Shown here piece by piece: positions 26,212 through 37,772 of a stretch of DNA of 51,563 nt. The position numbers and the translations under genes are program-made. The stretch is from an uncultured Methanosarcinales archaeon (lineage in GTDB: Archaea > Nanobdellota > Nanobdellia > Woesearchaeales > JAGVZT01). Numbering within the stretch: position 1 is the stretch's first letter; each line of letters opens with the position of its first letter. Where the stretch lies: the NCBI GenBank assembly GCA_964419615.1, contig CAYQPU010000007.1, positions 1 to 51,563 of the forward strand, written 5' to 3'. A model generated the notes under the pieces. That model saw only the letters and a program-made list of their open reading frames with translations, had not been told where the DNA came from and searched no databases.

Positions 26212-26547
26212 ATGGTATCAAAAGAATTAATGGACAAGGCTTTTGAAGCTATAGAAATAGCAAAAAGTAGTGGCAAAATAAAGAAAGGTACAAATGAGGT
26301 TACAAAGACTATTGAAAGGCAGACTGCAAAATTAGTTGCTTATGCAAAGGATGTTAGTCCGCCTGAGGTTGTTATGCATCTTCCTTTACTTGGTAAAGAA
26401 AAGAAAGTACCTGTTGTTGAGGTTTCCTCAAAAGAAGAGTTAGGAGCTGCTGCAGGTATTGGAGTTCCAACTGCAAGTGTAGCAGTTATTAATGAGGGCA
26501 AAGCAGGTAAGTTGATTAAAGAGATTGCAGCTGAACTAGGTAAATAA
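26212..26547 (+). CDS. rpl7ae: 50S ribosomal protein L7Ae
   Basis: [38 protein letters not shown]. Confidence 0.97.
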
Positions 26548-33289: not shown

Positions 33290-33691
33290 ATGGACTTATC
33301 TGCATATAAACAAGAATTTGATGGTTATGTGGAAAAGTATATTGAATGGATTGATAGCTGCAAGCAGGGAAAGGATACTAAATCTGTTTTAGGAGAATTA
33401 CTCAGTGGAACAAGTTATCTTTTTAGCATACTTAAGCAGGGGAGTGTGGTTGAAGTGCGTTCATATCCTGATCTCTTTCCAAAAAATTTTGATCCTACAC
33501 AAAGAGATACAGTTGCTTTAGGTTCTGATTGGAGAATAGTTCAACAAACTCTTGATAAAATAATTTCAAATGATGCTCAAGACTCAGAGCTTACAGTTGA
33601 ACAAGCAGAAGCTGGGAAGAAATTTGCAGAAAGAATATATGAAAACATGAGAGAATCCTATGCATTGTTTGCCTTTTGTGAGTCTAGATAA
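33290..33691 (+). CDS. Hypothetical helical protein (133 aa)
   Basis: Open frame, convergent with and overlapping the PIN gene end by 34 nt; no motif. Confidence 0.6.
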   Translation: MDLSAYKQEFDGYVEKYIEWIDSCKQGKDTKSVLGELLSGTSYLFSILKQGSVVEVRSYPDLFPKNFDPTQRDTVALGSDWRIVQQTLDKIISNDAQDSELTVEQAEAGKKFAERIYENMRESYALFAFCESR

Positions 33692-34098
33692 TAGTCATCA
33701 AAATGAGTTAACAATTCTGATGTTGAGTAAATTCTAATCACACTCTGGTCTTTAAGCTTTTTGTCATTACTCCAAATATCACATTTAAGTTTTAATGCCA
33801 AAGCAAAATAATCAACATCATTTTCATCAGGGCATATTTCTTGTGATTGTGAGATGAATTTTTCAGTTTCTTTATTTGAAACAGTTTTGATTTTCTTTTT
33901 TAGAATCAGCATAAGCCTGTTAAATTCAATTTCGCTTCTTTCTGATTTTATTAATATAACATCTTTATATTTTTCAAATTCTTGAAAAATAAATTCTGGT
34001 GCAAATAAATTAAGATCTAATTCAAACATAAGATCCTCAGTTTTCCCTGATTTGATTAGAACTGAAAATAATACATTTGCATCCACAACAAGGTCCAT
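33658..34098 (-). CDS. PIN-domain (VapC-like) toxin
   Basis: LVVDANVLFS, E, D.ND..YFALAL, IWSNDK.L: the conserved PIN acidic residues. Confidence 0.92.
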   Translation of the reverse strand: MDLVVDANVLFSVLIKSGKTEDLMFELDLNLFAPEFIFQEFEKYKDVILIKSERSEIEFNRLMLILKKKIKTVSNKETEKFISQSQEICPDENDVDYFALALKLKCDIWSNDKKLKDQSVIRIYSTSELLTHFDDYYLDSQKANNA

Positions 34099-34487: not shown

Positions 34488-35264
34488 TTACCCAATATAA
34501 TTAGTTTCTCCAACTTGACCCATTGATTTTTGTTTTGCTATGTCATGTAATCTTGCTTTTTTCTTGCTAAATTCTGTGTCAATTTCTTTGATTTCCTTTT
34601 CTATAGATTTCATGTCAACTTTTAGATCTAGTTTTTTGTTTAGTACTTCTAGGATTTTTTTAGATCCTTTTACTCCAATGTATAATGGATGACCAAATGT
34701 TTCTGCAAGTATTGATATTGCTTCTACATTATTTCTTTGTGCCATCCCAAGCAACACTCCTGACACTCCCACTATTGGCCCTACAACTCCATATAATTCA
34801 CTGTTAAGATCAGTGTTTTTAGAATAGGATTTAATTAGTTTTTTTGAGTTTCCAGTGCAGTATACTTTGGGTTCTTTCGGGACTGCTCTAAGTCCAATTC
34901 CACCAAGAGTTACTAAGTGCGATACTGAGTATTTTTTTGCTATTTTGACAATTTCTTCTGTGAATTCATAGCAAGATACTTCATCTATTGGCTGAACATC
35001 TCCTGCTAAAAGTAATAGGTCTTGTTTTCCATTTTTCACATAGTACATTTCAATAACTGGAAGATCTATTAGGTTATCTTCGTTTACAAAAACTGTTTGC
35101 GGCAAGGAATATGAAAAGAACTCATGTATTTTTACTGCTTTTAGTTCTTGCAAGAGAAAATCAACAACAATTTTTCCTACATTTGCAATGCCAGGCAGGC
35201 CTTCTATTAGTACAGGATTGTTTAGTTTAGGTACTTTTTCAAGGTTTTTTACTTGCCAAGTCAT
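34488..35264 (-). CDS. PAC2 family proteasome assembly chaperone-like protein
   Basis: LIEGLPGIANVGKI, D.QP, TLGGIG, G.IVG..G.LLG. Confidence 0.9.
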   Translation of the reverse strand: MTWQVKNLEKVPKLNNPVLIEGLPGIANVGKIVVDFLLQELKAVKIHEFFSYSLPQTVFVNEDNLIDLPVIEMYYVKNGKQDLLLLAGDVQPIDEVSCYEFTEEIVKIAKKYSVSHLVTLGGIGLRAVPKEPKVYCTGNSKKLIKSYSKNTDLNSELYGVVGPIVGVSGVLLGMAQRNNVEAISILAETFGHPLYIGVKGSKKILEVLNKKLDLKVDMKSIEKEIKEIDTEFSKKKARLHDIAKQKSMGQVGETNYIG

Positions 35265-35318
35265 TTGGTAAAGTAAGAATGGGGGATTTATATAGTTTGT
35301 GTATTACATTGTCCATGA

Positions 35319-35466
35319 GATAGCTCCACCGAGCCAGTTCGCTCGACAGTTTGCTAAATTCTTACCTGGCTAAAATCAAATACTTTTTAGATAATGCAAA
35401 CTGTTTCATATTGACTCTAATGATCATTTAAGTCTCGCTCACAACATTGGCTTGGGTGGAGCTATC
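35319..35466 (-). ncRNA. Unassigned structured RNA (~148 nt) with a K-turn
   Basis: Perfect 12-bp terminal helix (35319-35330/35455-35466), a further 5-6 bp, a canonical K-turn on the minus strand, and an inner 9-bp helix (35346-35354/35396-35404). The strand is inferred from tandem G-A pairs. Confidence 0.6.
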
Positions 35467-35516
35467 CACTAACTATCAACCACAAAATTTATTAACACTC
35501 TTTCATTTCTAATTAT

Positions 35517-36161
35517 ATGGAAATCCCGTATAAGGTAACTAAACTTCTTAAGGTTGGCGATGACGTTTCTATTCAACAACTTGATTTAGCTGATGTAAAA
35601 AAAGCATATATACCTAATCTAGCGAGTATTGTGTTGATGCCTAATCAAATCAGTCAAATTGTTTCAGGTCTTGGTAAAAAGATTACTCGAGATTGTCATG
35701 AGAGGGGTGTAGAGGTATTACACTTAATTGGCATACTTAAGGGAGCAGCTAATTTATTACCTAACCTTGCTTATGCAATTGATATACCGTGTACTTATGA
35801 TTTTATGAGTCTTTCAAGTTATGGTAAAGGACAAACGAGTTCTGGTAATGTTAAGATAGGATGTGATTTGAGAGATGATATTGCTGGAAAGGATGTTATT
35901 GTTGTTGAAGATATTGCAGATACAAGATATACACTCAAAATTTTGTTAGAGATTCTAGGATTAAGAAGTCCAAATTCTCTGGAAGTTTGCTGTTTACTGG
36001 ATAAACCTGAACGTAAAGAAAATCAAGTTGATATCAAATATATAGGAGCAACAATCCCAAATGTCTTTGTTGTGGGATATGGCTTAGATGGAGGTAGTCC
36101 TGAATTTCCAGATAGTCAAATATACAGAGATTTACCATTAATTGCAGAATTAAAACAGTAA
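35517..36161 (+). CDS. hpt: Hypoxanthine(-guanine) phosphoribosyltransferase
   Basis: IGILKGA, DFMSLSSYG, VIVVEDIADT, LLDKP.R, FVVGYGLD. Confidence 0.92.
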   Translation: MEIPYKVTKLLKVGDDVSIQQLDLADVKKAYIPNLASIVLMPNQISQIVSGLGKKITRDCHERGVEVLHLIGILKGAANLLPNLAYAIDIPCTYDFMSLSSYGKGQTSSGNVKIGCDLRDDIAGKDVIVVEDIADTRYTLKILLEILGLRSPNSLEVCCLLDKPERKENQVDIKYIGATIPNVFVVGYGLDGGSPEFPDSQIYRDLPLIAELKQ

Positions 36162-36162
36162 T

Positions 36163-36756
36163 CTATACTGTTTGAAGAATATTTAATGTAGTTTGTTTTA
36201 ATGTCTTTACTTCATTACTAAACTCTTTGTTTAGTGTTCTTTTATACAAAGATTCACAGATTCCCTTCCCAACATTTTCCATCTCCATTGATAGACAAGC
36301 ATAAGCTGCAACAGCACCTATTCCTCCAACTCCTCCAACTGATCCAGCTATCCATGGTCCTACATCTTGAGCAACAAAGATTCCAAACAAAGCACCTGCA
36401 ACAGCGCCAATTACATAGCCTATGCCCAGTGCGACAAATGGCCCATTATTACCAGCCCTTATGTATTCTCCCCTGCGTTTCCAGGAATGGTTTAATAATT
36501 GTCCAGGTTGCTTATTTTGATATAGTATTAATAGCTCATCAATATAATTGGTAATATGCCCCAGATTTGTTTGATCAACATCTAAATTTTCTAGTAAGGC
36601 TGATTCATCAGGTATGTCTTCTGAATTAACAACATAAGGATTTTGTTTATTGCCAATAATGTAGTGATAAACAATACTTGAGTCAATAACTGATTGATCT
36701 GGAACTTTTTCTCTTACTCTAGTATCAATTGTATTAAGGATTTTTCTAAGGCTCAT
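36163..36756 (-). CDS. Hypothetical membrane protein with a glycine-zipper hairpin
   Basis: GIGYVIGAVAGALFG...WIAGSVGGVGGIGAVAA. Confidence 0.75.
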   Translation of the reverse strand: MSLRKILNTIDTRVREKVPDQSVIDSSIVYHYIIGNKQNPYVVNSEDIPDESALLENLDVDQTNLGHITNYIDELLILYQNKQPGQLLNHSWKRRGEYIRAGNNGPFVALGIGYVIGAVAGALFGIFVAQDVGPWIAGSVGGVGGIGAVAAYACLSMEMENVGKGICESLYKRTLNKEFSNEVKTLKQTTLNILQTV

Positions 36757-36834: not shown

Positions 36835-37008
36835 TCAGATTAACCCTGTTTTTTCTCTTTGCTCTTTTTTAGTTTCTCTTCTATACTTAGCATATTTATC
36901 TTCTAGTGTGTATTTGGGTGGTTTTGCTGATACTGCATCTCCACCACATTCACAAATAGATTTCATTGTGTATTTTGAGCATTTGCTGCATTTTAGAATT
37001 TGATTCAT
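36835..37008 (-). CDS. nop10: Nop10 (H/ACA RNP subunit, 57 aa, not in the track)
   Basis: MNQILKCSKCSKYTMKSICECGG...AKPPKYTLEDKYAKYRR; 4-nt overlap with aIF2-alpha in the conserved order. Confidence 0.92.
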   Translation of the reverse strand: MNQILKCSKCSKYTMKSICECGGDAVSAKPPKYTLEDKYAKYRRETKKEQREKTGLI

Positions 37009-37772
37009 TTTCTGGTGAAGCTACCATTTCCTTCAATAGAATTGATATGATCTATTGCAGATGTTGTTGCTTTTTCAAGTATTGCTTCTGCTCGTTTGTA
37101 GTCTGGAGCTTTGACTGTTATAAAATAATCTCCTGAACCTTTGTATCTTAAGGTTACTCCTTCCATTATTGCTTTTTTAAGAGTTTCTTTGATTATGCTG
37201 ACTCCATCAGGTTCGTAGCTGGTTAGATGAAGTTCTCCACCAATTTCCACTTCCTGAGGCTTAAATCTTTGCTTGACAATTTCTTCAATTTTGTCAGCTA
37301 CTTTTTTGTCAACTTTAAATTCAGAAAATGATGTTTCTTCTCCAACAATGTCTTGGAAAAATGTGTGAAGATCAGGAAATTTTTGAAATATTTCTTTTGT
37401 GATTTCTGCGTATAATTCTTTATAATTCTTTTTTAGAAGACCTGCTACATATTCAATTACTTTTTCTGCTTTTTGCTCTTGTTTTAATGCACTTATTTTG
37501 TTTCTTTTTTGAGATTCATTGACTCTTCTTAAAGAAAGATCGACTTGTCTTCGATCATGTTTAACTCTCAAAACTTTACATACTACCTTTTTACCTTCTT
37601 TAACATAGTCTCTTATGTTTCTTATTCTACCTGGGCTGATTTCAGAGATATGAATTAAACCATCTATTTGGTATTCATCCAGGAAAACAAAGACAGAATT
37701 ATGTTTAACGCTTGTTACAGTACAAAGAACTATGTCAGATTCATCTGGTAAGCCATGCTTTCTATAAAGCAT
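37005..37772 (-). CDS. eif2a: Translation initiation factor 2 alpha subunit
   Basis: S1 domain: P...DIV..TV, LDEY...GLIHISEISPGRIRNIRDYV, DLSLRRV. Confidence 0.96.
   Translation of the reverse strand: MLYRKHGLPDESDIVLCTVTSVKHNSVFVFLDEYQIDGLIHISEISPGRIRNIRDYVKEGKKVVCKVLRVKHDRRQVDLSLRRVNESQKRNKISALKQEQKAEKVIEYVAGLLKKNYKELYAEITKEIFQKFPDLHTFFQDIVGEETSFSEFKVDKKVADKIEEIVKQRFKPQEVEIGGELHLTSYEPDGVSIIKETLKKAIMEGVTLRYKGSGDYFITVKAPDYKRAEAILEKATTSAIDHINSIEGNGSFTRK

Follow-up and report, generated by a model that had tools for sequence, protein, structure and literature searches.

Prokaryotic MITEs occupy AT-rich intergenic sites, produce stably folded transcripts and are flanked by direct repeats that wane over time (reviewed in PMC10969869). 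For example, the Coxiella element QMITE2 has TIRs, direct repeats of 7–9 bp and a core of 113–145 bp, and archaeal MITEs have been described in Sulfolobus, Halobacterium and Haloquadratum (PMC10969869). Some archaeal elements combine mobility with an RNA: the MITE-like C/D box sRNA elements of Pyrobaculum calidifontis are present in at least 15 copies in that one species, are transcribed and have near-consensus C and D boxes (Lui et al. 2018, PMC6009581).

The window analysed here is the whole 51,563-nt stretch of DNA, which belongs to a genome of 1.48 Mb (64 contigs, 99.4% complete; hereafter G000). Within it, positions 35319–35466 on the minus strand (148 nt) are the conserved core of one copy of a dispersed repeat, and the repeat's covariance model (R1) matches this window copy over its full length with 139.5 bits (E 1e-37). 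We chose the minus strand because this is the reading in which the tandem G.A motifs appear as G.A. In our judgement, the element is likely to belong to a family of non-autonomous DNA transposons (MITEs) that is specific to one Woesearchaeota genus, and this copy would be old and is probably immobile. An earlier note on this DNA had instead described a single unassigned RNA gene. That description does not hold, as the element is one of about 25 dispersed copies of a genus-restricted repeat with TIRs, 9-bp duplications and filled/empty sites in a sister species.

BLAST and nhmmer searches of the whole assembly found more than 20 diverged copies with 62–73% identity, and the covariance model, which was built on 21 copies (alignment A1), detects 24 full-length copies plus a partial one in G000. 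All are intergenic, they occur in both orientations, and about half are in divergent promoter gaps. Where a copy lies in a tandem gap, its orientation relative to the neighbouring genes is random (four co-oriented, four anti-oriented). The one other species of the genus that we examined, Ca. Woesearchaeota SuakinDeep_MAG79_5 (hereafter the sister species), has about 33 model matches. The repeat is thus short (a MITE should be below about 500 bp), non-coding, multicopy and dispersed, as is required of a MITE.

Beyond these two species, a model search of 39 further genomes of the same family and order found no copies. This set includes one unpublished genome (G006), which was used in that negative tally and the tRNA tally alone. 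An exact-pattern scan of one genome per species (approximately 185,000 species) gave multiple matches only in SuakinDeep_MAG79_5; the remaining matches are single, come from unrelated bacteria and are taken for chance. Two JGI metagenome scans found no copies, and four viral-contig matches were rejected as chance because they score 12–13 bits with the model.

Insertion scars are clear in the sister species. A young subfamily there can be aligned beyond P1 (the terminal helix in Table 1), which gives elements of 182–190 bp with a 12-nt TIR at both ends. In six of the nine complete sister copies the TIRs are directly bordered by exact 9-bp direct repeats, and one more copy has a 6-bp repeat, while none of the 72 mismatched pairings used as a control exceeds 4 bp. 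A target duplication of 9 bp fits several DDE families. Comparing sites between species, four of 15 sister copies examined are at sites that are also filled in G000, and at least six lie between orthologous genes which are adjacent in G000, i.e., the site is empty there. For example, the filled sister site L044 aligns with an uninterrupted sequence at G000:C22:26735-26815, and the downstream TATA box is part of that alignment.

Old-type copies in both species have no recognisable TIRs: the outer TIRs have decayed while the core has been kept. However, traces of insertion are visible in some G000 copies, with TIR remnants in three and 10-nt flanking direct repeats in two (vs 0.7% of controls). 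The window copy has no TIR-like 12-mer (up to two mismatches) within 2.7 kb and no direct repeat of 7 nt or longer in its 40-nt flanks, and the 12-bp helix that it does have is the internal P1. We infer that it once had outer repeats and a duplication.

The sister gap orthologous to the window site, upstream of the phosphoribosyltransferase gene, also holds a copy (L059), which is cut by the contig start. We had considered L059 to be a decayed orthologue of the window copy but withdrew this, as it belongs to a long form of the repeat: in both L046:1826-2010 and L059:1-199, the P5 loop is longer by approximately 165 non-coding nt. Five sister copies (L059 and four others) are cut short at the end of a contig, as is usual where a repeat has not been resolved, and the sister assembly may be missing a longer repeated insert. 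The genes adjoining these cut copies are ordinary ones.

Our search for a parent found no autonomous element with the repeat's ends among PF01609, PF13610, PF00872 and PF00665 or by self-BLAST of the assembled sequence. Each of the two genomes has one decayed IS5-type DDE gene, that of the sister species being disrupted by a stop. The single DDE_Tnp_1 match in G000 is at C2:51060-51455. In the sister species, L102:1415-2369 (C58) is an IS5-like element of approximately 955 bp whose 18-nt TIRs are 89% complementary and whose DDE domain contains a stop. We rejected it as the parent because its TIRs are unrelated to that of the repeat. The profile-family search found no IS6, IS256 or rve-type genes, and no dispersed repeat in G000 exceeds 330 bp. 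The transposase may be missing from the assembly, may have been lost, or may reside on a virus, a plasmid or a host.

The window copy lies in a 252-bp gap (35265–35516, with no ORF of 40 aa or longer) between two divergent genes, PAC2 (34488–35264, minus strand) and a phosphoribosyltransferase (35517–36161, plus strand), assigned by the Pfam families PAC2 and Pribosyltran. Nearby are a PIN-domain (VapC-like) ORF (33658–34098, minus strand), an eIF2-alpha gene (37005–37772, minus strand) and two ORFs with no Pfam family (36163–36756, minus strand; 33290–33691, plus strand). Features of the copy and its flanks are listed in Table 1.

Table 1. Helices, loop and flanking promoter boxes of the window copy, in window positions
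Feature	Position	Strand	Basis
P1 5' arm, 12-bp terminal helix	35455..35466	-	Perfect inverted repeat I4; covaries across copies
P1 3' arm	35319..35330	-	Inverted repeat I4; covariation
P2 5' arm, AGCCA (GGCC in most copies)	35448..35452	-	Columns 21-24 / 146-149 nearly invariant, 95.5% pairwise identity
P2 3' arm, UGGCU	35332..35336	-	Same columns as P2 5' arm
P3 5' strand: G-U, tandem G-A, two Watson-Crick positions, second G-A, G-A-C	35432..35442	-	Pair counts; stretch drawn as a K-turn in the earlier note
P3 3' strand	35337..35347	-	Pair counts
P4 region: in the family, a short hairpin capped C-GUAA-G; in the window copy mutated (CAUUAG), with copy-specific palindrome I5	35405..35431	-	Alignments
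P5 5' arm	35396..35402	-	97-99% paired, three covarying pairs
P5 3' arm	35348..35354	-	As P5 5' arm
Hypervariable loop, 41 nt, unstructured	35355..35395	-	Identity at shuffle level; fold z
TATA-like box of PAC2 (ATG 35264), outside the element	35286..35294	-	Centre 26 nt from ATG
TATA-like box of phosphoribosyltransferase (ATG 35517), outside the element	35488..35495	+	Centre approximately 26 nt from ATG

Most of the pairings read in the earlier note are present: the perfect terminal helix, AGCCA/UGGCU, the GACU..AGUC palindrome (I5) and the 9-bp ACAGUUUGC/GCAAACUGU repeat (I11; 35346–35354 / 35396–35404). Its CUAAAA/UUUUAG hairpin, however, falls within the hypervariable loop, and we set aside loop hairpins as structure because they are not significant (z +0.53 for the window copy; family mean z +0.19). 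It had also called the region much more GC-paired than its surroundings. The G+C of the copy is indeed higher (0.40 vs 0.30–0.36 in the flanks and 0.33 in the genome), but the enrichment is modest.

The TATA-like boxes reported outside both ends of the element exist as well. However, archaeal promoters of leaderless mRNAs are expected to have a TATA box about 26 nt from the start codon, and both boxes have this spacing from the flanking genes, so they are better read as the promoters of PAC2 and the phosphoribosyltransferase. Pairs of shared sites in the two species likewise have conserved TATA blocks approximately 26 nt from the divergent gene. Across the repeat, no promoter of its own could be assigned: upstream TATA boxes are common and fit the neighbours' promoters and, because they are quasi-symmetric, they cannot be ascribed to the repeat.

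When folded, the minus strand of the window copy reaches -48.6 kcal/mol (z = -4.75), and no shuffle is as stable. The plus strand folds equally well (z = -6.35). The pairing is also conserved between copies: P1 (13 bp), P2 (4 bp), P3 and P5 together have 88.5% of cells paired and 21 pairs that have changed on both sides, and in P1 and P2 such changes affect 13 of the 17 pairs. None of 500 shuffles reaches the observed values, and slid controls pair only 28–41% of cells. A 31-sequence alignment of the two species gives the same covariation picture, the range across both alignments being 82–88% of cells paired (26–41% in slid controls) and 21–23 double-sided pair changes. The homologue search with covariation that the earlier note had proposed as a check thus found copies in two species, with pairs that covary above shuffles.

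Conservation is very uneven along the element. Pairwise identity among the G000 copies is 95.5% in P2, 86% in P5, 76.5% in P3 and 74% in the unpaired junction, whose bases are conserved in the alignment of 21 copies. In the loop, identity is 57.5% vs 55.1% for shuffles, i.e., the loop is saturated in sequence. It nevertheless keeps its length (about 42 nt, with 20 of the 21 G000 copies at 40–44 nt), and across the family it is unstructured. The four sites shared by the two species follow the same gradient, with 77% identity in the junction plus P5, 67% in P3 and 47% in the loop.

Neutral decay after insertion would not, on its own, give this pattern, as it would erode core and loop alike and change the loop length. 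Even with no selection, the arms of quasipalindromes can stay complementary through template-switch correction (PMC7202029), but this would not explain conserved unpaired bases or a fixed loop length. Some constraint on the repeat core therefore seems likely.

One possible source of constraint is function as an RNA. The conserved core of approximately 150 nt might be a functional small RNA that is carried by, or was recruited from, a mobile element, which is compatible with a MITE origin. P1–P3 would then be a scaffold which, with a GNRA-capped P4 and with P5, presents the 42-nt variable loop as a single strand, and the tandem G.A helix could bind a protein. Such a role is consistent with the strong covariation, the conserved junction bases, the greater conservation of core than loop at the four shared sites, the saturated but fixed-length and unstructured loop, and the survival of the core after the outer TIRs decayed. 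The genome's L7Ae-family genes and the Pyrobaculum calidifontis precedent (PMC6009581) also suit it, as does the C-GUAA-G hairpin, which is found in approximately nine of the 21 G000 copies and 10 of the 16 aligned sister copies. However, the GNRA loop is mutated in more than half of the G000 copies, the window copy included. G.U and A.C mismatches are equally frequent in the G000 copies (11:11), so there is no strand signal. In the sister species the ratio is 22:5, but those copies are not independent, and we therefore dropped the assignment of a strand by this ratio. The random orientation relative to neighbours, the lack of an assignable promoter and the restriction to one genus likewise count against a small RNA, as do the absence of a conserved K-turn and of loop targets (both discussed below). 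We regard this explanation as possible but unlikely.

A more specific form of it is that the old copies are selected as small RNAs in which a closing helix, the helix with two G.A steps, a GNRA hairpin and an 8-bp clamp display a 42-nt loop of free sequence, with targets outside the cell's own genome (in a host or virus). This seems improbable to us. If true, a DPANN archaeon would have a family of ‘display’ or antisense/guide RNAs that was spread by transposition.

Constraint could also act on DNA, with copies serving as protein-binding or insulating sites (hairpins or cruciforms) between divergent promoters and being kept for that role. The equal folding of both strands, the equal numbers of G.U and A.C, the constant element length and the share of copies in divergent promoter gaps would all fit. 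That share, however, is also what tolerated insertions would produce when the genome is compact. It is hard to see what the conserved tandem G.A and the asymmetric P4 would mean in duplex DNA, and there is no known binding protein. We consider a DNA-level role very unlikely.

The earlier note's main structural claim was a canonical K-turn (C-stem GU/AC, bulge UGU). It can be drawn in the window copy, but in only one other of the 21 copies (C22). The GU of the drawn stem and the first base of the bulge fall in variable alignment columns. The other two bases of the supposed bulge, G and U, hardly vary and form pairs with that very A and C (G-C in 30 of 31 sequences, U-A in 26 of 31). What is conserved as P3 is a continuous helix of 11 positions that contains two tandem G.A steps but lacks a 3-nt bulge, and in which these G-C and U-A pairs are stacked directly on the tandem G.A. 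The canonical K-turn is not a family feature.

Judged by sequence, 30 of the 31 copies are compatible with tandem G.A at the first step, which is U-A/A-U in one copy, and the second step is Watson-Crick in 6–8 copies. The pairs between the two steps covary, with GC in 14 and AU in 13 copies at one position, and GC in eight, UA in eight and CG in six at the other. The replacement of G.A by two Watson-Crick pairs in one copy suggests that it is pairing, and not the sequence of the duplex, that is constrained.

The window also contains an L7Ae-family gene (26236–26514, plus strand). Its orthologue in the sister species (C48:17542-17817) is approximately 170 nt from a repeat variant of approximately 470 bp.

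With respect to known RNA classes, no Rfam family matches the window copy at gathering scores (search of the whole window), and in E-value mode (E up to 10, over 35150–35650) nothing falls inside it. The Rfam check that the earlier note had suggested therefore found no known family for the element. Nor does ARAGORN find a tRNA in the window copy.

The earlier note had also raised a derived SRP RNA. The Rfam SRP model has no match in the window copy, the SRP-like segment is in the non-conserved loop, and G000 has a canonical archaeal SRP RNA (RF01857), an RNA expected once per genome, elsewhere, at C3:32984-33257 (plus strand, 133.9 bits). This SRP RNA lies approximately 55 nt from a repeat copy at C3:32772-32929 (minus strand).

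A guide RNA should have C/D plus C'/D' boxes with guides of 10–12 nt, or else a pseudouridylation pocket together with an ACA tail. No C/D or H/ACA match falls inside the element at E up to 10, and no canonical boxes were read in the sequence. Complementarity of the loops to G000 is not above shuffled controls (mean best match 30.7 bits, one self-match included, vs 28.5 for shuffles), so a guide role is unsupported. The sole loop match above controls is on the same strand: the loop of copy C2:12430-12590 has a perfect 19-nt match at G000:C19:23578-23596 (38.2 bits vs a shuffled maximum of 34.2).

Taken as a whole, the reading of the earlier note, i.e., a single-copy L7Ae-binding ncRNA or a highly derived SRP or guide RNA, can appeal to the K-turn drawable in the window copy, the lack of an Rfam match and the L7Ae-family gene in the same window. 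It is contradicted by the copy number and the SRP RNA elsewhere, and the bulge-free conserved pairing, the position of the SRP-like segment and the lack of C/D or H/ACA matches add to this. We find it scarcely credible.

We also tried the element as a tRNA intron (bulge-helix-bulge) because there are just 10 tRNA matches in this 99%-complete genome. The idea was rejected: 62,424 trial excisions around 24 copies yielded no tRNAs with ARAGORN. The 10 tRNA genes of G000 are those above the Rfam model cut-off, and the genome has only about 10 canonical T-arms. ARAGORN places introns of 42–84 nt in several G000 tRNAs, e.g., C26:14351-14505, C22:20306-20469 and C12:16611-16748. Low tRNA counts (6–21) are common in relatives, including those that are free of the repeat.

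We return to the MITE as the best explanation. Copies would have been cut or copied, then pasted by a transposase supplied in trans, which would recognise the 12-nt TIRs and make 9-bp target-site duplications. They would survive only in short intergenic gaps, mostly between divergent promoters, and the window copy, situated between the promoters of PAC2 and the phosphoribosyltransferase, would have lost its recognisable outer repeats and duplication. The element's RNA-like look would come from a long imperfect hairpin between its two halves (P1, P2, the helix with two G.A steps and P5), the pairing of which may be kept by selection on the hairpin (as DNA or transcript) or by template-switch correction.

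In favour of a MITE we count the copy number, the one-genus range, the intergenic copies in both orientations, the TIRs, 9-bp duplications and filled/empty sites of the sister species, the remnants in G000 copies and the lack of a strand signal. Against it we count the missing TIR and duplication of the window copy, the lack of a transposase with matching ends, the 74–96% identity of the core (P2, P5 and unpaired junction) around a saturated loop of fixed length, and the copy in which G.A has become Watson-Crick.

This analysis removes a false lead, as the element is neither a new single-copy class of K-turn RNA nor a derived SRP RNA. It also documents what is probably a MITE family in a Woesearchaeota genus, with clear insertion scars in one species and just old copies in the other. 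To our knowledge, MITEs of DPANN archaea have hardly been described. The one feature that deserves further attention is how strongly the core is kept around a loop whose sequence is free but whose length is fixed: if this reflects selection, small archaeal genomes have some reason to keep approximately 25 copies of a transposon-borne RNA or DNA element.

Compared with known systems, the repeat resembles prokaryotic MITEs in its size (150–190 bp), lack of an ORF, many copies, AT-rich intergenic sites and stable hairpin. Its young subfamily has TIRs and 9-bp duplications, and the direct repeats are gone in old copies, as in those elements. It differs from them in that neither genome yielded a parent insertion sequence and in that the interior of old copies is far better conserved than the termini and encloses a saturated loop of fixed length. 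Like the kink-turns of archaeal C/D, H/ACA and RNase P RNAs, it has tandem G.A / A.G beside Watson-Crick pairs, but the family has no 3-nt bulge between a canonical stem and the G.A, and one copy has Watson-Crick pairs in place of G.A.

The Pyrobaculum calidifontis C/D sRNA family is the closest precedent for a mobile element with an RNA-like core. The Woesearchaeota repeat lacks canonical C/D boxes and a conserved K-turn. However, both are archaeal dispersed repeats with conserved flanking inverted repeats, an RNA-like core with G.A-based motifs, and a poorly conserved interior, which in Pyrobaculum corresponds to the ‘guide’ parts.
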